This document shows, piece by piece, positions 10,783-55,576 of a stretch of DNA of 64,000 nt (its first letter is position 1; each line of letters starts with the position of its first letter). The position numbers and the translations under genes were made by a program. The stretch comes from Eledone cirrhosa (Eukaryota). The stretch lies in assembly GCA_964016885.1 (NCBI GenBank), contig CAXHJY010000322.1:133029-197028 (forward strand). The letters are read 5' to 3'. A model generated the notes under the pieces. That model was not told the DNA's origin, did not search any database, and worked only from the letters and a program-made list of their open reading frames with translations.

Positions 10783-13230
10783 GACGGATGACGGATTCAA
10801 CAGACAAACTAAATGGCTACAAGAACTGGAACAGGACTACTGCCAACATGTCCAGACAAAACAATATGACATAGATGGGTCAATACTGGAAACAGCTCTA
10901 CAGAAAATGTCGAATAGGAAATCGCCAGGCCCAGACCTCATTACAGGATACTGGTTGAAGAAATTCACTTTCTATCGGCAAGATCTCATACGGCTGTTTA
11001 CAGAAACCATTAAAGGTACACAAGAACTGCCCAGATAGTTATCAACTGCCACTACTCTTCTCATTTCCCAAAATAGCCAAACCACCCTTGCTAAAAATTA
11101 CCGCCCAATAGCCTGCCAAAACATCATGTATAAATTATATACTGGGTGCCTTAACCTGTTCTTACAGGATCACTGTGCTACCAACAACATCATAACACCT
11201 GAGCAAGCTGGTGGAAAGAGGGAGGTGTGGGGTTGCATAGATCACCTACTAACTAACAAAATGATTCAGGAAAAAACAACAAAGAATCGCAGAAACATGA
11301 CTGTGGTGTGGCTGGACTATCAAAAAGCATTTGATAGTGTACCTCATGGGTGGATTATTAAGGCTTTACAGTTAGCTAAAGTCCCACAACCATTGGTAGC
11401 TGCTGTTGAACGCCTGACCAAGAACTGGTACACCAATTTGATCCTTAGAGGTGAGAAGGAGCAAGTTAAGACTGATAAGATACATTACCAGAAGGGCATC
11501 TTTCAGGGTGATAGCTTGTCAGTGCTACTCTTCGTTCTCTCACTGAATCCACTATCTTACCCACTCAGGAAACAAGGTGGACAAAGTAGTGGGCCCAGAA
11601 GTATCTCCCATCTTCTCTTTGTTGATGACCTGAAGTTGTATGGGCCAAATATCATGACATCAAGAAACAATTGGACCTCATTATACAATTTTCAACCGAC
11701 ATCAAAATGAAATTTGGTGAATCCAAGTGTGCATATTTGGCAGTAAAACGTGGAAGAGCTGTGCCCTCCTCTAGAAATCTAGAGATGAACGGCCTGACAA
11801 TACAACCTCTACAGTCAGGTGACAACTACAGATATCTTGGACAGGATGAGAATGTCAGATATGATGGACCCATATATAAGGAGAGAACCAGAACTGAATA
11901 CCTCAGAAGAGTAAAGAATATATGGTCATCAGAACTGTCAGCGTACAACAAATACATTGCCCACAATACTTATGCTGTGCCAATTCTAACGCCAACATTT
12001 GGCCTGCTGAACTGGTCATTGCAAGAACTAAGTGAGATGGATGTTAGAACTCGAAAACTTCTCAGTGTTACTGGGAACTTTAACATCAATGGTGATGTGG
12101 ATAGGCTATACTTCTCATCCAAGGAAGGTGGCCGGGGTCTAAAATCAATATTAACAACATATGAGACCCGGATAGTAACACTGAAGCAACACCTTCAACA
12201 GAGGAAAAAGGTTGGCAACCATCTTGCCCAGGTTTATGAGCATGAAAAAAAAAATATCATTAGAATAGCGACTGATCTGGAGGAGAGATATGGAATAAAG
12301 CCTGATATAAATCTCTCACCCAGAGAAATCGGAAGATCCTATTCAATGTTCAAACAAGATTAAAAAATTGACCAATTTACAGAAAAAGTTGTGCATGGAT
12401 ACTTGAGGCGTAAAACACAGACCATAGAGGGGATAAACACTCAAAAAGCATGGCATGGAGTTCCGACAAGTTTATGACATCACACCTTGAGGGATATCTT
12501 TATGCAATACAGGAACAAGAACTCCCTACCAAATATCTACTGCACAAAAGAGGAGGGCCAGCAGCTGACAATAAATGTAGGCTATGTAAAACAAAGATCG
12601 AGGATGTAAGCCACATTGTTGCCAGCTGCGAAAGAATGTCATCTCGCTACTACCTCCTCATGAGACACGATGGGATAGCTAGAACCATCTGGAACGCACT
12701 TCGGAAAACAAAATTAACAACAAACGAGGAAGAATATATTGAGACAGATGGCACTAAGGAATACTGGTGGAACCTGAAAATAAAAACTGCCACCAAATTA
12801 AAGCACAACCGGCCTAATATTGTTGTTTGGGACCACACATTGAAAACGTGTTCTGTTGTGGAGATCAGCTGCCCACTTGATGTAAATGTTGTCAGAAAAA
12901 TACAGGAGAAGGAGGACATCTACGGACCAGTGATGAGGAGTTTACAAATCCAGTATCCAAGATACCCCTTTAGCTTCATACCCATCATTATTGGAGCTAC
13001 GGGTTATATACCAACCCGCTTTGACCAAAGTATGACTGAACTTGGATTTGCGGACAAAAAGCGCAGCTCCCTAATTCATAGTCTACAAATGGCTGCGATA
13101 GCTGGTACCTTCAAAATTTGCAAAACATTCTTGCGATTCAAGGGATGACAATTTCTTTTCTTTTACAACCTTGCCACCAGGAAGGTGGCCGGTCAAAAAA
13201 AATATACTCGAAATTAAGAGAAAGAGATAA
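10781..13230 (+). mobile_element. R4/Dong-like non-LTR retrotransposon (RT + restriction-like endonuclease), 5'-truncated, degenerate
   Basis: RT motifs (NYRPIAC, WLDYQKAFDSVPH, GIFQGDSLS, LFVDDLKLY, YRYLG), CCHC (CRLC..SHIVASC), RHD and RP(D>N)IVVWD..VEISCP..K. Flanked by (CATA)n. Confidence 0.9.
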
Positions 13231-13303
13231 CATACATACATACATATAAACAAATATACATATACACATACATACATGCATAAATGAATACATATACACA
13301 TAT

Positions 13304-13913
13304 ATGGTGGCTGCCAACTCGTTTTCGAGTACGGCCACTACTTTATATCCATGTAGGAGAACCCCCACCGATGCGCTGAAGGAGTGTGACTTTTTAATCC
13401 AGCCAGCGACTTGAAAACTCTGGTACAAACACTACACTTGTGACAATTATTGTCACATAGTGCTGGACCCATAGTACCATGTGATGACAAGTGCAGAGAG
13501 ATCTCCAGATATAAAGCAATGCCTGTGCAGTGAAGCTTTTATAGTGAGCAAAGGCACTGCACAAAGCCAGTCCCACTCTCTTAACCAAGATGATATTTAC
13601 CAAAAAGAAGAACAAGTCAACATCATTGGATACCATCAGGGTTGCAGGTGTTATATCAGAGTTTTCCTTCTCCTAGAATTCTGCCTTGACAAAGGCTAAA
13701 GAGTCATCTCTCCCGGTGATTTTGGATGGCCATTGACTCTTAAGAGCTCCTTTGACCTTTGACAGGTTTTGTTTTTAGTCCTGCAGGATGTCCAAAGTCA
13801 CCCTCCTCACCAAGAAACCTTGGTGGGGTTGCCAGTTTAGTCGCCAACGACCCGACCATGAGACAGGTTGTACTGGATACATGTGACCGGTAGCACCAAC
13901 TGGTGACCTGACA
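13304..13913 (-). mobile_element. ~610-bp non-autonomous RTE-derived (bipartite) element, copy 1
   Basis: Recurs at 30145, 40213 and 53188 with the same ends. The minus strand has the RTE-type 5' UTR motif CTAGGAGAAGGAAAACTCTGAT and a 3' remnant encoding a C2H2 finger ([17 protein letters not shown]...AH) typical of RTE C-termini. Confidence 0.75.
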
Positions 13914-13978
13914 TATGAAGCGGCGGCCTACCGCATGCCGTCTTCTTCAACCAGCCCTGACGTCGCCGGCGACGACGT

Positions 13979-14115
13979 ATACATACATACATACATACAT
14001 ACATACATACATACATACATACATACATACATAAATAAATAATACACACATACATACATACATACATACATAAATAAATAAATAATACATACATACATAC
14101 ATACATACACACATG
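13979..14115 (+). repeat. Compound (TACA)n/(TAAA)n microsatellite
   Basis: Seen directly. Confidence 0.92.
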
Positions 14116-15049
14116 CATCTTTGAAGGATATGCTTTTGCAATCCAAGTACAGGAGATTATCACGAAATACCTGATTCACAAAAGAGATAGGGTTGCAGGC
14201 AAAACACCTAGGTGTGATAACAAGTGCAGACTTTGCAGAACTGACATCGAGGATATCACCCATGTAATCAGCAGCTGTCCAAAGATGTCATCGCGGTACT
14301 ATCTACCTATGAGGCATGATGTAGTGGCCAAAACACTGTACAATGCAGTTCGTAAAAAAGATAGCCCCGATCATAAACACATTAAAAGCTACAGCAATGT
14401 GGAAGACATCCATGTACATAATATGAAAGAATACTGGTGGAATGTTCCAGTAAAAACCCCAATAAAATGCAGGCATAACAGACCAGATATTATGATATGG
14501 GACAGGGAGAAGAAAGCATGCAGAGTAGTGGAAGTTAGCTGCCTAGCAGATGGCAATATAATATCAAAGATTAGTGAAAAGGAGAATATTTATGCAAAAC
14601 TGATGAGAAATCTGCAGATACTCCACCCTGATTACACCTTCAGATTTATGCCTGTGATTATTGGGACACTGGGGTATGTTAGTAACTGCCTCAATACAAA
14701 TCTTGAGAAGTTAGGCTTCACAGGAACAGAAAGAACACAATTAGTTAGGAAATTACAAGTACAATCCATTAATGGAACAGCAAAATTATGTAAAACATTC
14801 CAAACATTCTGCATCTAATAACTACATATACAATGTACAGATACAAGGCATATACACATGCACACGTACAACTCAAAGCATCCACATCCACACATACAAT
14901 AACATCCATACCTGCACACACATGCATGCAGACATACATATATAATCTACCTAGTTGATGTGTAAATGTCAATGAGAGTCTTGTAGCTATGTTAGAAACC
15001 GACTATCTCTCTATTGGTAAAAATTTGTGAAATTATAAAACTAGAAGAA
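14116..15049 (+). mobile_element. Second R4/Dong-like RLE LINE family, 5'-truncated (CCHC + RLE domain + 3' UTR)
   Basis: FEGYAFAIQ..NKCRLC..THVISSC..RHD..RPDIMIWD..VEVSC..EKENIY; stop at 14818. Both flanks are (CATA)n. Confidence 0.88.
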
Positions 15050-28476: not shown

Positions 28477-29414
28477 AGAACACTCCACCACTCACATCTA
28501 TATATCCTTTAAATAACGAAATAACGTTTACATTTCAACTCCAATATCATCCGTTATATTCTCTCCATCTCTATATTTTTGTTTTCTCTATCTCGATATA
28601 TATTTTCTCTACCTCCCTCTATATATATTTCTCCTTAATTTGCAATAGTGTTGCTGTTTCTTCCGGATCCGGAAGTAGAAACCCCACCACCACCTACCAC
28701 CGAACAAACGAAATATCCTTAATAGTCTCATTACATTTCCAATCGCTACTTGATTATGAAATTTTCTACTCAAATTGTAGCCAATATCGATCCTATCTGC
28801 TATGTATAGCCAAACATATACCTAAGCAATGGCATTGCTATTCAACGAACTATATAGCCTGCGGCCATTTTTGCGAACAGAACAGTGTTTCAATATATAT
28901 AGCAAAGCAAATAGTAATAAATAAATGAATAAATAAATGAATAAATGGCTACTGTCCGGTCTATACAATATGAACATTTTGCCTATACCTTCTGGAGTTA
29001 ATTACATTCCTTCTTGCTTACGAATTTCACTTATGAAGCAATAAATGGCGCATTTCATTGCTCCATTTTTATTTTTTATTTTATTGGGATTTTTCTTGTT
29101 TTGTTGTTTTGTTTGTTGTTATATTTTTTTTTCATATTCATTTTCGTTATTTAACAAATAACTATATAGCTTATAGTAGATGTCGTCTGCTTCTTTGAAT
29201 AGGAACTTTTAAGAGTGAAGCAACATGGCAGCTATAAATTTACCATTTCCATCATGTTAATACAGTAATAACATATACACTAATGTGTTATTTCTACTTG
29301 AAGCTATTTAGCTGGCTTGTAATTACGTAAGTATATATATATATTCTGACTGTCATTTATATTAATACATTTCACAGCACAATCACCATATATTATATAT
29401 ATATATATATATAG

Positions 29415-29699
29415 ACCTGTGCGAAATTCCTTCCTTGCTCACATTTCAACCAGGTTTGATGGTCTTTATTATCTCGTTCACGATTTCACCAAATTTATAT
29501 TCATAGAAATCTGGGACTTGTCTCTTTCTTCATCACTTTCTGTTGCTTAAACCATTTTGTTTGTTTACCCTAGCGTCCCCTTTATTTACGTGTCCCAACG
29601 ACTTTTTTTAGCCGTTGCTCGCACCAACCTGAGGTATATGGTCTTTAAAGCGATGAAATGCCTATGACGGTTGGAAGGCCACTGATGAAGGACAAACTT

Positions 29700-29703
<4 letters not shown>
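29415..29703 (+). mobile_element. Penelope-pLTR/retrozyme-like fragment between (TA)n tracts
   Basis: TA-flanked island whose 3' part is homologous to the motif in the 497-bp repeat at 41325-42216. Contains CTGATGA. Confidence 0.5.
29591..29694 (+). ncRNA. Candidate pseudoknotted hammerhead-like ribozyme with K-turn, variant A
   Basis: ATA|TGGTCTT, GAAA and CTGATGA plus helices covarying with 41564-41666 (see findings). Confidence 0.55.
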
Positions 29704-30097
<394 letters not shown>

Positions 30098-31297: not shown

Positions 31298-31420
31298 TTG
31301 GTTGTCCATCGTAAAGGATGATGACATCTTTATTGTTGTTCCCGTCTGCCATGGGCACGAAGGTGGCTGTGGAGGTCCTGCGACAGTGGGGGCAGGGGAA
31401 GAGACCGGAGTCAGGTCCGG
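31298..31420 (-). mobile_element. 3' terminus of an RTE-clade LINE
   Basis: The minus strand reads ..LFPCPHCRRT/LHSHLRAHGRREQQ*, followed by a short 3' UTR GTCATCATCCTTTACGATGGACAACCA. Confidence 0.7.
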
Positions 31421-34400
31421 CGACAGTGGGGGCAGGGGAAGAGACCGGAGTCAGGTCCGGGGACAGTGGGGGCAGGGGAAGAGACCGGAGTCAGGTCCGG
31501 CGACAGTGGAGGCAGGGGAAGAGACCGGAGTCAGGTCCGGGGACAGTGGGGGCAGGGGAAGAGACCGGAGTCAGGTCCGGGGACAGTGGGGGCAGGGGAA
31601 GAGACCGGAGTCAGGTCCGGGGACAGTGGGGGCAGGGGAAGAGACCGGAGTCAGGTCCGGGGACAGTGGGGGCAGGGGAAGAGACCGGAGTCAGGTCCGG
31701 CGACAGTGGAGGCAGGGGAAGAGACCGGAGTCAGGTCCGGGGACAGTGGGGGCAGGGGAAGAGACCGGAGTCAGGTCCGGGGACAGTGAGGGCAGGGGAA
31801 GAGACCGGAGTCAGGTCCGGGGTCAGTGGGGGCAGGGGAAGAGACCGGAGTCAGGTCCGGCGACAGTGGAGGCAGGGGAAGAGACCGGAGTCAGGTCCGG
31901 GGACAGTGGGGGCAGGGGAAGAGACCGGAGTCAGGTCCGGGGACAGTGAGGGCAGGGGAAGAGACCGGAGTCAGGTCCGGGGACAGTGGGGGCAGGGGAA
32001 GAGACCGGAGTCAGGTCCGGCGACAGTGGAGGCAGGGGAAGAGACCGGAGTCAGGTCCGGGGACAGTGGGGGCAGGGGAAGAGACCGGAGTCAGGTCCGG
32101 CGACAGTGGAGGCAGGGGAAGAGACCGGAGTCAGGTCCGGGGACAGTGGGGGCAGGGGAAGAGACCGGAGTCAGGTCCGGGGACAGTGAGGGCAGGGGAA
32201 GAGACCGGAGTCAGGTCCGGGGACAGTGGGGGCAGGGGAAGAGACCGGATTAAGGTCCGGGGACAGTGGGGGCAGGGGAAGAGACCGGAGTCAGATCCGG
32301 GGACAGTGGGGGCAGGGGAAGAGAGCGGAGTCAGGTCCGGGGACAGTGGGGGCAGGGGAAGAGACCGGATTAAGGTCCGGGGACAGTGGGGGCAGGGGAA
32401 GAGACCGGAGTCAGATCCGGGGACAGTGGGGGCAGGGGAAGAGAGCGGAGTCAGGTCCGGGGACAGTGGGGGCGGGGGAAGAGAGCGGAGTCAGGTCCGG
32501 GGTCAGTGGGGGTAGGGGAAGAGACCAGAGTCAGGTCCGGGGACAGTGGGGGCAGAGGAAGTGACCGGAGTCAGGTCCGGGGACAGTGAGGGCAGGGGAA
32601 GAGACCGGAGTCGGGTCGGGGGACAGTGGGGGAAGAGGAAGAGACCGGAGTCAGGTCCGGGGACAGTGGGGGCAGAGGAAGAGACCGGAGTCAGATCCGG
32701 TCCGGAGACAGTGGGGGCAGAGGAAGAGACCGGAGTCAGGTCCGGGGACAGTGAGGGCAGGGGAAGAGACCGGAGTCAGGTCCGGGGACAGTGGGGGCAG
32801 GGGAAGAGACCGGAGTCAGGTCCGGGGACAGTGGGGGCAGAGGAAGAGACCGGAGTCAGGTCCGGGGACAGTGAGGGCAGGGGAGGAGACCGGAGTCAGG
32901 TCCGGGGACAGTGGGGGCAGAGGAAGTGACCGGAGTCAGGTCCGGGGACAGTGGGGGCAGGGGAAGAGACCGGAGTCAGGTCCGGGGACAGTGGGGGCAG
33001 AGGAAGAGACCGGAGTCAGGTCCGGGGACAGTGAGGGCAGGGGAAGAGACCGGAGTCAGGTCCGGGGACAGTGGGGGCAGAGGAAGAGACCGGAGTCAGG
33101 TCCGGGGACAGTGGGGGCAGAGGAAGAGACCGGAGTCAGGTCCGGGGACAGTGGGGGCAGGGGAATAGACCGGAGTCAGGTCCGGGGACAGTGAGGGCAG
33201 GGGAAGAGACCGGAGTCGGGTCGGGGGACAGTGAGGGCAGGGGAAGAGACCGGAGTCAGGTCCGGGGACAGTGAGGGCAGGGGAAGAGACCGGAGTCAGG
33301 TCCGGGGACAGTGGGGGCAGAGGAAGAGGCCGGAGTCAGGTCCGGGGACAGTGGGGGCAGGGGAAGAGACCGGAGTCAGGTCCGGGGACAGTGGGGGCAG
33401 AGGAAGAGACCGGAGTCAGGTCCGGGGACAGTGGGGGCAGAGGAAGAGACCGGAGTCAGGTCCGGGGACAGTGGGGGCAGGGGAAGAGACCGGAGTCAGG
33501 TCCGGGGACAGTGAGGGCAGGGGAAGAGACCGGAGTCGGGTCGGGGGACAGTGAGGGCAGGGGAAGAGACCGGAGTCAGGTCCGGGGACAGTGAGGGCAG
33601 GGGAAGAGACCGGAGTCAGGTCCGGGGACAGTGGGGGCAGAGGAAGAGACCGGAGTCAGGTCCGGGGACAGTGGGGGCAGGGGAAGAGACCGGAGTCGGG
33701 TCGGGGGACAGTGAGGGCAGGGGAAGAGACCGGAGTCAGGTCCGGGGACAGTGAGGGCAGGGGAAGAGACCGGAGTCGGGTCGGGGGACAGTGAGGGCAG
33801 GGGAAGAGACCGGAGTCAGGTCCGGGGACAGTGGGGGCAGGGGAATAGACCGGAGTCAGGTCCGGGGACAGTGAGGGCAGGGGAAGAGACCGGAGTCGGG
33901 TCGGGGGACAGTGAGGGCAGGGGAAGAGACCGGAGTCAGGTCCGGGGACAGTGAGGGCAGGGGAAGAGACCGGAGTCAGGTCCGGGGACAGTGGGGGCAG
34001 AGGAAGAGACCGGAGTCAGGTCCGGGGACAGTGGGGGCAGGGGAAGAGACCGGAGTCAGGTCCGGGGACAGTGGGGGCAGAGGAAGAGACCGGAGTCAGG
34101 TCCGGGGACAGTGGGGGCAGAGGAAGAGACCGGAGTCAGGTCCGGGGACAGTGGGGGCAGGGGAATAGACCGGAGTCAGGTCCGGGGACAGTGAGGGCAG
34201 GGGAAGAGACCGGAGTCGGGTCGGGGGACAGTGAGGGCAGGGGAAGAGACCGGAGTCAGGTCCGGGGACAGTGAGGGCAGGGGAAGAGACCGGAGTCAGG
34301 TCCGGGGACGGTGGGGGCAGAGGAAGAGACCGGAGTCAGGTCCGGGGATAGTGGGGGCAGGGGAAGAGACCGGAGTCAGGTCCGGGGACAGTGGGGGCAG

Positions 34401-35912
34401 AGGAAGAGACCGGAGTCAGGTCCGGGGACAGTGAGGGCAGGGGAAGAGACCGGAGTCAGGTCCGGGGACAGTGGGGGCAGAGGAAGAGACCGGAGTCAGG
34501 TCCGGGGACAGTGGGGGCAGAGGAAGAGACCGGAGTCAGGTCCGGGGACAGTGGGGGCAGGGGAATAGACCGGAGTCAGGTCCGGGGACAGTGAGGGCAG
34601 GGGAAGAGACCGGAGTCGGGTCGGGGGACAGTGAGGGCAGGGGAAGAGACCGGAGTCAGGTCCGGGGACAGTGAGGGCAGGGGAAGAGACCGGAGTCAGG
34701 TCCGGGGACAGTGAGGGCAGGGGAAGAGACCGGAGTCAGGTCCGGGGACAGTGGGGGCAGAGGAAGAGACCGGAGTCAGGTCCGGGGACAGTGGGGGCAG
34801 AGGAAGAGACCGGAGTCAGGTCCGGGGACAGTGGGGGCAGAGGAAGAGACCGGAGTCAGGTCCGGGGACAGTGGGGGCAGGGGAATAGACCGGAGTCAGG
34901 TCCGGGGACAGTGAGGGCAGGGGAAGAGACCGGAGTCGGGTCGGGGGACAGTGAGGGCAGGGGAAGAGACCGGAGTCAGGTCCGGGGAGAGTGGGGGCAG
35001 GGGAAGAGACCGGAGTCAGGTCCGGGGACAGTGGGGGCAGGGGAAGAGACCGGAGTCAGGTCCGGGGACAGTGGGGGCAGGGGAATAGACCGGAGTCAGG
35101 TCCGGGGACAGTGAGGGCAGGGGAAGAGACCGGAGTCGGGTCGGGGGACAGTGAGGGCAGGGGAAGAGACCGGAGTCAGGTCCGGGGAGAGTGGGGGCAG
35201 GGGAAGAGACCGGAGTCAGGTCCGGGGACAGTGGAGGCAGGGGAAGAGACCGGAGTCAGGTCCGGGGACAGTGGGGGCAGGGGAAGAGACCGGAGTCGGG
35301 TCGGGGGACAGTGAGGGCAGGGGAAGAGACCGGAGTCAGGTCCGGGGACAGTGGGGGCAGGGGAAGAGACCGGAGTCGGGTCGGGGGACAGTGAGGGCAG
35401 GGGAAGAGACCGGAGTCAGGTCCGGGGACAGTGGGGGCAGGGGAAGAGACCGGAGTCGGGTCGGGGGACAGTGAGGGCAGGGGAAGAGACCGGAGTCAGG
35501 TCCGGGGACAGTGAGGGCAGGGGAAGAGACCGGAGTCAGGTCCGGGGACAGTGGGGGCAGGGGAAGAGACCGGAGTCAGGTCCGGGGACAGTGGGGGCAG
35601 GGGAAGAGACCGGAGTCGGGTCGGGGGACAGTGAGGGCAGGGGAAGAGACCGGAGTCAGGTCCGGGGACAGTGGGGGCAGGGGAAGAGACCGGAGTCAGG
35701 TCCGGGGACAGTGGGGGCAGGGGAAGAGACCGGAGTCAGGTCCGGGGACAGTGGGGGCAGGGGAAGAGACCGGAGTCAGGTCCGGGGACAGTGAGGGCAG
35801 GGGAAGAGACCGGAGTCAGGTCCGGGGACAGTGGGGGCAGGGGAAGAGACCGGAGTCAGGTCCGGGGACAGTGGGGGAAGGGGAAGAGAGCGGAGTCAGG
35901 TCCGGAGACAGT
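31381..35912 (+). repeat. 40-bp G-rich minisatellite (~113 units) GGACAGTGGGGGCAGGGGAAGAGACCGGAGTCAGGTCCGG
   Basis: Direct tandem array with variant blocks and one 5-bp phase shift at ~32700. Confidence 0.99.
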
Positions 35913-39585: not shown

Positions 39586-40212
39586 CCTATATATATACAA
39601 CCTATATATATATATATATATATACACACCCTATATATATACACTCTCTCTCTCTATATATATATATATACACACTATATATATATATATACACCCTATA
39701 TATATATATATACACCCTATATATATATACACACCCTATATATATATATATATACACCTTATATATATATATATATACAACCTATATATTTTTATATATA
39801 CACCCTATATATATATATACACCCTATATATATATAAATATACACACACTATATATATATATACACCCTATATATATACACCCTATATATATACACACCC
39901 TATATATATATATACACCTATATATATATACACACACTATATATATATATATATATACACCCCATATATATATATATACACACCCTATATGTTTATATAT
40001 ACACACCCTATAAATATATATATATACACCCTATATATATATACACACCCTATATATAAATATATACACACCCTATATATATATATATACACACTATATA
40101 TATATATATACACCGTATATATATGTACACCCTATAAATATATATATACATCCTATATATATACATATATATACACCCTATATATATATATATACACCCT
40201 ATATATATATAT

Positions 40213-40822
40213 ATGGTGGCTGCCAACTCGTTTTCGAGTACGGCCACTACTTTATATCCATGTAGGAGAACCCCTACCGATGCGCTGAACGAGTGTGACT
40301 TTTTAGTCCAGCCAGCAACTTGAAAGCTCTGGTACAAACACTACACTTGTGACAATTATTGACACATAGTGCTGGGCCCATGGTACCATGTGACGACAAG
40401 TGCAGAGAGATCTCCAGATATAAAGCAATGCCTGTGCTGTGAAGCTTTTATAGTGAGCAAAAGCACTGCACAAAGCCAGTCCCACTCTCTTAACCAAGAT
40501 GATATTTACCAAAAAGAAGACCAAGTCAACATCATTGGAAACCATCAGGGTTGCAGGTGTTATATCAGAGTTTTCCTTCTCCTAGAATTCTGCCTTGACA
40601 AAGGCTAAGGGGTCATCTCTCCCGGTGATTTTGGATGGCCATTGACTCTTAAGAGCTCCTTTGCCCTTTGACAGGTTTTGTTTTTAGTCCTGCAGGTTGT
40701 CCAAAGTCACCCTCCACACCAAGAAACCTTGGTGGGGTTGCCAGTTTAGTCGCCAACGACCCGACCATGGGACAGGTTGTACTGGGATACATGTTACCAA
40801 TAGCACCAACTGGTGACCTGAC
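40213..40822 (-). mobile_element. RTE-derived bipartite element, copy 3
   Basis: Homologous to copy 1; inserted in (TA)n. Confidence 0.75.
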
Positions 40823-41033: not shown

Positions 41034-41563
41034 ACCTATATATATATATACACCCTATATATATACATACACACCATATATATATATACACACCCTATAT
41101 ATATATATATATACACACCCTATATATATATATATATATATACACCCTATATATATATATACACACCCTATATATATATATATATATACATCCTATATAT
41201 ATATATACACCCTATATATATATATATACACTCCATATATATATATACACCCTATATATATATACACTATATATACATATATACACACTATAAATATATA
41301 TATATACACCCTATATATATATATTCACACTTTCACTCACTCACTGTTTTTCTCCCTCTTCTCTTCATTTCATCCTGCACTCACGGACGCTATTTTTTCT
41401 CTCTCTGCTCAATGGCCTTCGTTCGTGCTGGACTATTCTTTCCCTAGCGCTCATATATTCACCTAGCTTACGCTAACAGAATATTTTTTGAAGCTTGTTT
41501 CTCTCCCACGGTATGCTATCTTTTCTGTTGTTCTCCTGTCTCAGTAGCTTTACGCGTTTTAAT

Positions 41564-41666
41564 TGTCCTAATAACTTATTTTGGTTATTATTGCACCGAA
41601 GTGAGATATATGATTTTTAATGCAATGAAATATCTATGATCTTCGGCAAATCACTGATGAGGGACG
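41564..41666 (+). ncRNA. Candidate pseudoknotted hammerhead-like ribozyme with K-turn, variant B (intact core)
   Basis: ATA|TGATTT at 41608-41616, GAAA at 41627 and CTGATGA at 41654. Six pairings are conserved with variant A. Confidence 0.55.
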
Positions 41667-42060
41667 TATTTTATTACATGTTACCATGTGCTACCTGCAG
41701 TATTTTTCTCTATATTTTAATACATATATTTACCACTGCGATTCTGTGTTTTTTTCTCTCTCTCTTACTGTTCCCCCATTCTCTCTGTTTCTCCCCCTCT
41801 GTCTTGTCCGTTAACTCTTCCTCACACTTTCACTCACTCACTGTTTTTCTCCCTCTTCTCTTCATTTCATCCTGCACTGACGGACGCTATTTTTTCTCTC
41901 TCTGCTCAATGGCCTTCGTTCGTGCTGGACTGTTCTTTCCCTAGCGCTCATATATTCACCTAGCTTACGCTAACAGAATAATTTTTGAAGCTTGTTTCTC
42001 TCCCACGATATGCTATCTTTTCTGTTGTTCTCCTGTCTCACTCGCTTTACGCGTTTTAAT

Positions 42061-42163
42061 TGTCCTAATAACTTATTTTGGTTATTATTGCACCGAAGTG
42101 AGATATATGATTTTTAATGCAATGAAATATCTATGATCTTCGGCAAATCACTGATCAGGGACG
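42061..42163 (+). ncRNA. Second copy of variant B with core mutation CTGATGA>CTGATCA
   Basis: Identical helices with a single core change. Confidence 0.45.
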
Positions 42164-42214
42164 TATTTTATTACATGTTACCATGTGCTACCTGCAGTAT
42201 TTTTCTCTATATTT

Positions 42215-42251
<37 letters not shown>

Positions 42252-53187: not shown

Positions 53188-53797
53188 ATGGTGGCTGCCA
53201 ACTCGTTTTCGAGTACGGCCACTACTTTATATCCATGTAGGAGAACCCCTACCGATGCGCTGAACGAGTGTGACTTTTTAGTCCAGCCAGCAACTTGAAA
53301 GCTCTGGTACAAACACTACACTTGTGACAATTATTGACACATAGTGCTGGGCCCATGGTACCATGTGACGACAAGTGCAGAGAGATCTCCAGATATAAAG
53401 CAATGCCTGTGCTGTGAAGCTTTTATAGTGAGCAAAAGCACTGCACAAAGCCAGTCCCACTCTCTTAACCAAGATGATATTTACCAAAAAGAAGACCAAG
53501 TCAACATCATTGGAAACCATCAGGGTTGCAGGTGTTATATCAGAGTTTTCCTTCTCCTAGAATTCTGCCTTGACAAAGGCTAAGGGGTCATCTCTCCCGG
53601 TGATTTTGGATGGCCATTGTCTCTTAAGAGCTCCTTTGCCCTTTGACAGGTTTTGTTTTTAGTCCTGCAGGTTGTCCAAAGTCACCCTCCCCACCAAGAA
53701 ACCTTGGTGGGGTTGCCAGTTTAGTCGCCAACGACCCGACCATGGGACAGGTTGTACTGGGATACATGTTACCAATAGCACCAACTGGTGACCTGAC
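53188..53797 (-). mobile_element. RTE-derived bipartite element, copy 4 (duplicate of copy 3)
   Basis: Nearly identical to 40213-40822. Confidence 0.75.
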
Positions 53798-54303: not shown

Positions 54304-55193
54304 TCACACTTTCACTCACTCACTGTTTTTCTCCCTCTTCTCTTCATTTCATCCTGCACTCACGGACGCTATTTTTTCTCTCTCTGCTCAATGGCCTTCG
54401 TTCGTGCTGGACTATTCTTTCCCTAGCGCTCATATATTCACCTAGCTTACGCTAACAGAATATTTTTTGAAGCTTGTTTCTCTCCCACGGTATGCTATCT
54501 TTTCTGTTGTTCTCCTGTCTCAGTAGCTTTACGCGTTTTAATTGTCCTAATAACTTATTTTGGTTATTATTGCACCGAAGTGAGATATATGATTTTTAAT
54601 GCAATGAAATATCTATGATCTTCGGCAAATCACTGATGAGGGACGTATTTTATTACATGTTACCATGTGCTACCTGCAGTATTATTCTCTATATTTTAAT
54701 ACATATATTTACCACTGCGATTCTGTGTTTTTTTCTCTCTCTCTTACTGTTCCCCCATTCTCTCTGTTTCTCCCCCTCTGTCTTGTCCGTTAACTCTTCC
54801 TCACACTTTCACTCACTCACTGTTTTTCTCCCTCTTCTCTTCATTTCATCCTGCACTCACGGACGCTATTTTTTCTCTCTCTGCTCAATGGCCTTCGTTC
54901 GTGCTGGACTGTTCTTTCCCTAGCGCTCATATATTCACCTAGCTTACGCTAACAGAATAATTTTTGAAGCTTGTTTCTCTCCCACGATATGCTATCTTTT
55001 CTGTTGTTCTCCTGTCTCACTCGCTTTACGCGTTTTAATTGTCCTAATAACTTATTTTGGTTATTATTGCACCGAAGTGAGATATATGATTTTTAATGCA
55101 ATGAAATATCTATGATCTTCGGCAAATCACTGATCAGGGACGTATTTTATTACATGTTACCATGTGCTACCTGCAGTATTTTTCTCTATATTT

Positions 55194-55197
<4 letters not shown>
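54304..55197 (+). mobile_element. Duplicate of the 497-bp partial tandem repeat (motifs at 54543-54645 and 55040-55142)
   Basis: Nearly identical to 41325-42216. Confidence 0.6.
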
Positions 55198-55272
<75 letters not shown>

Positions 55273-55385
55273 CCTATATATATATATATATATACCCTAT
55301 AAATATATATATATACACCCTATATATATATATATATACGCCCTATTATATATATATACACCCTATATATATATATATATATATA

Positions 55386-55576
55386 GGAACCAGTAAGACC
55401 CCGACAGCTGAGCTCAAGCCGTTTCGACGGCTAATTCTGGACAGAATTAGCCGTCGAAACGGCTTGAGCTCAGCTGTCGGGGTCTTACTGGTTCCTATTA
55501 CCCACTCTACTACCTCAAGTATTGAGTACTTTGGTGCGTTATGGTCCACCTGGTTCCTTACCACATTTCCTTCGTT
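55386..55576 (+). mobile_element. Penelope-like fold-back fragment with the 3' half of a type I hammerhead
   Basis: Perfect 57-bp inverted arms. The right arm reads GAC..GTC-GAAA-CGGCT(TGAGCTC)AGCTG-TC-GGGGTC. Inserted in (TA)n and absent from the other duplicate. Confidence 0.65.

Follow-up and report, generated by a model that had tools for sequence, protein, structure and literature searches.

The Locus and Its Repeats

The window, i.e., the whole stretch of 64,000 nucleotides of Eledone cirrhosa DNA analyzed here, carries between positions 177 and 27869 a dense set of broken open reading frames (ORFs) which we take to be non-LTR retrotransposon families, several copies having endonuclease and reverse transcriptase (RT) motifs. 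A second type, at 11039-14818, combines an RT with a C-terminal restriction-like domain. Further downstream, 113 copies of a G-rich 40-bp satellite (95% matches) occupy positions 31373-35912, and a TA-rich satellite with a TATACACCC-type unit, whose plus strand is nearly devoid of G, covers 35912-63998 and includes a segment of about 13 kb that is duplicated together with its insertions. Other repeats are found in (TA)n runs at 29735-29990, 40212-40790, 53190-53790, and 55385-55540, two of them as inverted repeats; pieces related to them adjoin ORF fragments of Penelope-like elements (PLEs) in two of the genomic loci that were fetched (L033 and L055).

Two families of a further repeat, A and B, are also present, each with a ribozyme-like motif:

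29414-29705, plus strand: solo family A unit, 5'-truncated (whole unit about 626 bp), between (TA)n runs
29591-29694, plus strand: family A ribozyme-like motif; predicted cut after 29638
41325-42215, plus strand: family B insertion, whole, about 1.8 tandem 497-bp units in the TA-rich satellite
41564-41666, plus strand: family B ribozyme-like motif, whole (sequence, covariation)
42061-42163, plus strand: second B copy, with G8 changed to C at 42156; a natural predicted-inactive control
54304-55209, plus strand: duplicate of the B insertion, with motif copies at 54543-54645 and 55040-55142

The B motif at 41564 is thus accompanied in the window by three further copies (starting at 42061, 54543, and 55040), of which those at 42061 and 55040 read CTGATCA. 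The pair at 54543 and 55040 does not count as an independent insertion because it lies in the segment duplicated about 13 kb away, where 1,000 bases are 99% alike. An alignment of motifs A and B over 103 columns shows 70.9% identity (E = 1.8e-8).

A Hammerhead Core in Permuted Order

An earlier note on this DNA had described motifs A and B as a permuted, doubly pseudoknotted hammerhead, and a check of the sequence located its helices and linkers in both motifs. In motif B, the parts are as follows:

41564-41569, plus strand: P0 5' strand, pairs with 41662-41666; U41569 may pair with G41661 in an alternative junction register
41569-41590, plus strand: hairpin arm of the four-way junction (covariation, energy folding)
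41591-41595, plus strand: P1 5' strand, the inferred stem II partner from the 5' side; pairs with 41621-41625
41596-41601, plus strand: P2 5' strand (helix bridging stems I and II), pairs with 41641-41646; double changes in 5/6 pairs
41602-41604, plus strand: predicted kink-turn, non-bulged strand (3n, 2n, 1n), as defined in PMC5061560
41605-41610, plus strand: stem III 5' strand and NUH triplet; predicted cut after 41610
41611-41616, plus strand: stem I 5' strand, pairs with 41648-41653; double changes in 4/6 pairs
41626-41634, plus strand: position 11.1, GAAA core strand, and stem III 3' strand
41635-41640, plus strand: predicted kink-turn, bulged strand (L1-L3, 1b, 2b, 3b)
41654-41660, plus strand: CUGAUGA core strand

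The three parts of a hammerhead core, CUGAnGA, GAAA, and NUH, can all be read in the motif. As proposed earlier, they would make up a knotted hammerhead core, conserved and covarying, with the predicted cut after A41610 in B and A29638 in A. Types I, II, and III were rightly set aside, since the blocks come in the order S-G-C (cut site, GAAA, CUGAUGA), as opposed to the circular order C-G-S without core pseudoknots. On the other hand, the order is not a new one, as had been thought; it is that of type SGC (Eckert et al., 2023; PMC10085705), which was shown to cut at its predicted site, at rates of 0.007-0.19 per min, and to need stems I-III and the bridging helix.

Type SGC, which includes HRIMA-1 and an SGC variant, shares with the present motif the S-G-C order, the full core, at least two pseudoknots, a short linker from stem I to the 11.x strand, and a helix bridging stems I and II (here P2). 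In most HRIMA-1 rows a single purine stands between the stem II strand and the bridging helix, as it does here between P1 and P2. However, stem II of type SGC runs unbroken after CUGAUGA, starting from G10.1-C11.1, whereas here the 5' side supplies the stem II strand as well as the bridging one. Moreover, the present motif adds P0 and a hairpin, which give a four-way junction, and a kink-turn-like loop between the bridge and stem III. In the accessible parts of their paper, Eckert et al. took CUGAnGA and its adjoining paired strands as uninterruptible, searched with a pattern comprising CGAAA, CUGAUGA(U)G, and two or more additional pairs in stem II, and listed 85 SGC rows, all with an unbroken, G-C-closed stem II. 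Since no G-C followed by two or more pairs comes directly after CUGAnGA in our motif, its block C is broken and its wiring lies outside what those parts of the paper describe, even though its order is known. The motif would work like a type-SGC hammerhead, yet departs from that type in one defining feature.

Type CSG of the same paper (two active sequences) has the same cyclic order, and its stem II strand, bridging strand, and cut-site block are consecutive, as here. It differs in that CUGAUGA stands at the 5' end and leads straight into stem II, with neither junction nor P0 in the one alignment row inspected. In the literature searched, which takes in few subscription journals and hence gives no proof of absence, terms for type SGC occurred only in PMC10085705, and no paper on split-core wiring or on permuted hammerheads in animal repeats was found; the wiring is likewise undescribed in the accessible passages of PMC3088659, PMC10162972, and PMC13725137. 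The published SGC sequences come from metatranscriptomes (PMC10085705, Suppl. Note 1), whereas the motif described here is a high-copy genomic repeat. If cutting holds true, non-circular permutations of the hammerhead would be abundant in animal genomes instead of being rarities of environmental RNA.

Copies and Families

Genome-wide collection of copies with a pattern covering the 3' half of A/B clade motifs gave 10,999 matches (5,366 + 5,633) in the 3.0-Gb genome, against 0 + 0 for the control. Searches with the motifs themselves yielded 946 candidates for B, of which the 40 scored were all 100% identical, and 1,710 for A, with 42 matches at 97-100%. Looser patterns led to divergent families (519 matches against 4 in the control); patterns for families D and C matched 47 and 188 times in the genome, and a joint pattern for C, G, and H 531 times against 7 in the control, with C counts overlapping between patterns. 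The genome counts are lower bounds, because the patterns demand exact matches. Families G, H, and F (L166-L176 and L165) are further divergent and keep the block order of A and B; G and H have a longer stem III. A structure-first descriptor, in which only the core words were fixed and all six helices were required, was run on both strands of 656,927 bases, i.e., the window and loci L001-L160, which overlap and were picked for carrying the motif. It gave 143 hits (44 distinct) there and none in the same DNA read backwards.

Outside the assembly, contigs of one sequencing run (X1) hold many motif variants; runs X4-X6, labeled with other organism codes, have one or two contigs each, mostly near-identical and of low depth, which is not evidence of range. 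Viral contigs gave three pattern matches, none with the helices, and metagenome contigs gave none.

Comparison with Rfam at E <= 10 gave no hammerhead match for motif A or B, and there is no hammerhead among the 150 of 232 window rows listed. This result carries little weight, since three loci with hammerheads that look canonical by eye were also unmatched at the gathering score. The best local Rfam matches of the motif are C/D snoRNAs (E 1.8-6.6, far under threshold), and the words UGA, AUGAU, and CUGA resemble boxes D', C', and D. A retroposon derived from a box C/D snoRNA would account for these words. Nevertheless, we regard this origin as very unlikely: no box C lies upstream, families C, G, and H have lost the boxes and kept the hammerhead core, and GAAA, NUH, the covarying stems I and III, and the pattern of changes at positions 7 and 8 described below would all be left unexplained.

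Covariation, Folding, and Selection

Fifteen real copies of families B, E, A, and D, hand-picked for diversity, were aligned and the pairs of the earlier note scored on them. Paired cells amount to 94.9%, against 83.7 ± 0.9 in shuffles and 30.5-48.0% in slid registers, and the covariation claimed from two sequences is borne out, with double changes in 19 of 34 pairs (P0 2/5, hairpin 3/7, P1 2/4, P2 5/6, stem III 2/5, and stem I 4/6). None of 500 shuffles reached the paired-cell and double-change values, figures that are not probabilities because the rows are related and the structure was derived from two of them. Further pair types (26, against 29.4 in shuffles) do not exceed the shuffles, 491 of 500 being as high. 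Some of the details given earlier had to be amended: four pairs of P0 are solid and the outer, fifth one is unpaired in 9 of 15 rows; P1 pairs as described, with five pairs instead of four being possible in B, E, and D; and the linkers called invariant vary once further families are included.

Families C, G, and H were left out of these counts, because MAFFT placed C off by two columns, and were parsed by anchors instead; the automatic parse chose wrong P0 partners in some rows and had no output for C2, D2, H, F, and one G copy. In these three families, stems I and III and P1 are rebuilt with different letters; C1.1-G2.1 and GUC in family C are examples. Stem I has C-G as its first pair in 20/22 C copies vs. 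U-A in 120/120 copies of A, B, and E, and pair 16.2-15.2 is G-C in 21/22 C copies vs. A-U in the same 120/120, in a comparison limited to the 150 of 206 contexts that passed a stem filter (9/10 pairs), which favors paired cells. Thus, by the 15-copy alignment and by the anchor parse, the stems I and III that flank the core covary. Energy folding alone recovers P0, the hairpin, P2, and stem III, that is, the nested part, in A, B, and C, with modest z-scores (-1.6 for A, -1.8 for B).

With the rest of the pattern fixed, position 7, the letter left free in CUGAnGA (PMC10085705), is changed in 2,165 copies and G8 in 105, as compared to 10,999 copies unchanged at both. Among the 100 matches listed, all position 7 variants are C and occur across subfamilies; the copies with a changed G8 are mostly scattered. 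Amplifying lineages have kept G8 and could alter N7, which is expected if spread needs cutting, although the N7 excess may stem from a few expansion events.

The observed sequences, copy numbers, and covariation make it almost certain that the RNA structure is real, conserved, and selected. Repeats that spread as satellites could produce chance pairings, and this one does form long arrays, such as that at G000:C1:81.65-81.70 Mb. Even so, a chance reading is hardly credible, being contradicted by the compensatory changes across divergent families, by the pattern and descriptor controls, by the N7/G8 pattern, and by the finding, by eye, of the same fold in unrelated published sequences (see below). 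As far as sequence comparison can tell, the motif is also very probably an active self-cleaver. The array just mentioned, a B-type one at G000:C1:81650851-81695753, has a spacing of about 514 bp and mixes variants of N7 with variants of the loop position G1b.

Stem II and a Probable Four-Way Junction

P1 is taken as stem II because it pairs with the strand directly before GAAA. The strand that follows P1, after a single purine, is joined by P2 to the one that precedes stem I. P0, the hairpin, and P1 are consecutive, with no or few unpaired bases between them, and so form a four-way junction with the core. The bases following CUGAUGA pair within P0 and not with the 11.x strand, and the canonical G-C is absent from stem II in families A, B, D, and E.

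The earlier note had a four-way junction closed by a single R-U pair as stem II. The junction stands, and the single pair does not hold as a general stem II. When registers were scored on 131 copies, the cis register, in which the base after A9 pairs with 11.1, was found in 44/44 A, 55/55 B, 10/10 E, and 2/4 D copies, and in 0/13 C, 0/3 G, and 0/2 H copies. In the alternative register, P0 gains the base after A9, and 11.1 pairs with the base preceding P1; the two pairs occur in 54/55 B copies each, in 7 and 9 of 13 C copies, in 3/3 G copies each, and in 1 and 2 of 2 H copies, and A does not fit. Closure at 10.1-11.1 would come from a cis R-U pair in A, E, and B, or from a G-C or A-U pair with the 5' strand in B, C, G, and H, and is poor in D, where neither register pairs well and A stands opposite A in 5/8 copies. 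P0 tends to draw in the base after A9 in families C, G, and H, where a G from the 5' side pairs with C11.1. From these counts, the general design appears to be a break at A9 with a 10.1 partner from the 5' side, the R-U pair being a shift within one lineage. Sequence comparison thus places the break in the catalytic strand at A9 or directly behind it, with stem II probably rebuilt through the four-way junction. If cutting is true, the most studied of the small ribozymes would tolerate a break in a strand assumed to be indivisible.

A Predicted Kink-Turn

The earlier note overlooked two features, a kink-turn-like reading of one linker and the retrozyme-like character of the carrier repeat. A standard kink-turn has a 3-nt bulge followed by G.A and A.G pairs (PMC5061560). 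In families A, B, and E, the loop between stem III and P2 has a 3-nt bulge, G1b.A1n and A2b.G2n, and is flanked by two helices. The end of the non-bulged strand (2n-1n) is GA in 47/49 A and 69/71 B/E copies, and no search pattern fixed that strand. Since A1n is kept with L1 being U, A, or C, it is not simply part of an A-U pair. Family D has a U at 2n, as in Kt-23. In C, Watson-Crick pairs replace the G.A pairs and the bulge is kept; G and H have other loops, without the kink-turn. G1b is changed in 154 copies, a part of them in arrays at several loci, and a G1b-to-A variant is among these.

At 3b.3n, copies of family A have C.U or U.G, and those of B and E have U.U. A C at 3b or a G at 3n favors folding by ions only, and other pairs may need a protein or tertiary contacts (PMC4382518). 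The likeness to known kink-turns (PMC5061560; PMC4382518), including the Kt-23-like 2n of D, is a prediction from these letters. With a sharp bend at this place, P2 could fold back from where stem III ends and reach the tips of stems I and II, a geometry of the bridging helix that the discussion of Eckert et al. raises as a puzzle (PMC10085705). No natural hammerhead with a kink-turn was found in the literature searched, in which subscription journals are few. If the motif does cut, it would be a hammerhead that carries by nature a bend able to bind protein, of use in structural studies and in RNA switches.

The Fold as One Unit or Two

The double pseudoknot is likely formed within one unit. 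P2 and stem III would make one long hairpin, probably bent by the kink-turn, whose loop contains H17, the stem I strand, the linker, the 11.x strand, and GAA. This loop would pair with the 3' flank to give stem I and with the 5' flank to give P1, serving as stem II. The chain would leave the core and enter P0 directly behind A9 or, in families A and E, behind a single R-U pair; P0, the hairpin, and P1 would then close the four-way junction and hold stem II on the core. Finally, P2 would tie the far ends of stems I and II, replacing the usual loop-loop contact.

Alternatively, activity of the core might require an exchange of strands between two tandem units. The cut-site and CUGAUGA blocks of one unit would then pair with the GAAA block of the unit before it, and the resulting circular order would be type II-like and free of pseudoknots. 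Identical tandem neighbors do permit the same pairs in trans, and some animal hammerheads cleave as dimers (PMC7229834). We consider this arrangement improbable. The covarying P2 and stem III fold locally. The usual cue for dimers is a palindromic stem III loop, and the motif has none. In addition, SGC monomer constructs cleave (PMC10085705), and the published Naiad entries discussed below have, as judged by eye in the part available, one motif at their 3' end. The dimer dependence suggested earlier is accordingly not a requirement of the data, and folding within one unit is the reading retained here.

A Retrozyme-Like Carrier

The motif occurs once per unit in tandem, non-coding, dispersed copies. 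Tandem spacing is 494-497 bp in B, about 531 bp in E, 621-637 bp in A, and 583 bp in the one pair measured in D. Units are pyrimidine-rich with low self-pairing (unit z -2.0), and an ORF scan found no meaningful ORF in the unit. Copies are truncated at the 5' side at scattered points (27 B ends, from -481 to -2), often follow an inverted, 5'-truncated partial copy, and are flanked by (TA)n or (CT)n runs. The 26 mapped 3' ends of B lie 68-123 nt beyond the predicted cut; they cannot show that no copy ends at the cut, because the filter and the choice of loci, in a mapping done for family B only, admit only copies that span it.

The observed tandem and inverted layout is that of PLE insertions (PMC8557442, section 6) and of non-LTR retrozymes (PMC7229834; bioRxiv 10.64898/2026.07.22.740005). 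Metazoan non-LTR retrozymes likewise consist of non-coding tandem units with one hammerhead each, low GC, and many dispersed copies, and PLEs were proposed to mobilize them. As described in the accessible parts of these sources, however, they are defined and searched by type I hammerheads, a test that the S-G-C order does not pass. Units here (500-630 bp, pyrimidine-rich) are also weakly self-paired, whereas classical retrozyme circles are highly self-paired. Copies longer than one unit with intact sites imply a circular or an uncut multimeric template.

In the model that we favor, the predicted cut after A41610 would release unit-length RNAs that circularize, and the circles would be reverse-transcribed into (TA)n sites by a PLE acting in trans. 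Taken as a whole, with its fold, cleavage, circles, and mobilizer all inferred, this retrozyme model seems likely. The structure might instead be kept as a binding or priming signal for a PLE RT or a host protein (e.g., 15.5K on the kink-turn), with cutting absent or too slow to matter. Such a role would fit the thousands of copies that span the predicted cut intact, the B ends 68-123 nt beyond it, and the stem II without canonical G-C in A, B, D, and E. Yet a re-ligated circle or an uncut precursor would leave intact sites as well, and a signal does not explain why G8 is fixed while N7 varies, or why, amid covarying neighbors, U16.1-A15.1 and a non-G at position 17 persist. We therefore give it little weight as compared to a cleaving retrozyme.

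Possible Relationship to Naiads

In the accessible parts of Craig et al. (2021; PMC8557442), no canonical hammerhead is reported in Naiads, and eight are marked HHR_half_core. Of the 62 CTGATGA places in the available supplement of that paper, 52 were inspected by eye, 30 of which are in consensus sequences (places 27-56). Seven of these 30 (28-31, 37, 40, and 41), in about four independent groups, show the full knotted layout by eye, and place 42 possibly does. Of the remaining consensus places, two have the canonical order and the others are in ORFs or other elements. In the seven Naiad entries, the fold is at or near the 3' end, 11.1 is in a G-C pair, and the base after A9 is in P0, which is weak in places 40 and 41. 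Naiad_Ovul, one of those marked HHR_half_core, resembles family B in its kink-turn words and hairpin loop and, like most B copies, ends about 120 nt past the predicted cut. If the fold does cut, this would overturn the stated absence of hammerheads in Naiads and reveal retrozyme families missed by current searches.

Naiads share with the present repeat (TA)n targeting, partial tandems, and inverted copies (PMC8557442), and differ in that they encode an endonuclease (EN) and an RT, whereas the repeat encodes nothing. ORF scans of the fetched loci found no autonomous partner and no GIY-YIG EN plus RT ORF joined to the repeat; PLE fragments near it are separate insertions or terminate in different tails. 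In the genome, a pattern for a Naiad-like ribozyme gave two decayed hits without ORF, and one for the Naiad DKA codons gave none; both are narrow and do not show absence. A more far-reaching proposal combines a wiring outside the six block permutations of Eckert et al., a kink-turn through which a host protein of the L7Ae family (15.5K/Snu13) turns cleavage on, the missing Naiad ribozyme across animal phyla, and a large class of retrozymes invisible to type I searches. We advance it tentatively, at somewhat short of an even chance.

At L001:82-1330 (minus strand), the 3' part of a PLE ORF and a family B unit are joined directly, with no TA spacer in between. The fusion possibly arose by template switch and would then hint at the mobilizer. 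The PLE fragment itself (L001/L091) was considered as the autonomous partner and rejected, as it ends in a canonical-looking hammerhead of its own.

The genome seems to hold ordinary retrozymes and PLE hammerheads as well, since type I-like motifs in canonical order are seen by eye in L095 (a 466-bp repeat), in L083 at about 1040-1090, and on the minus strand of L091 downstream of the ORF, all below Rfam gathering scores. The PLE type of L001 is also found near A or C copies in L051 and L110.
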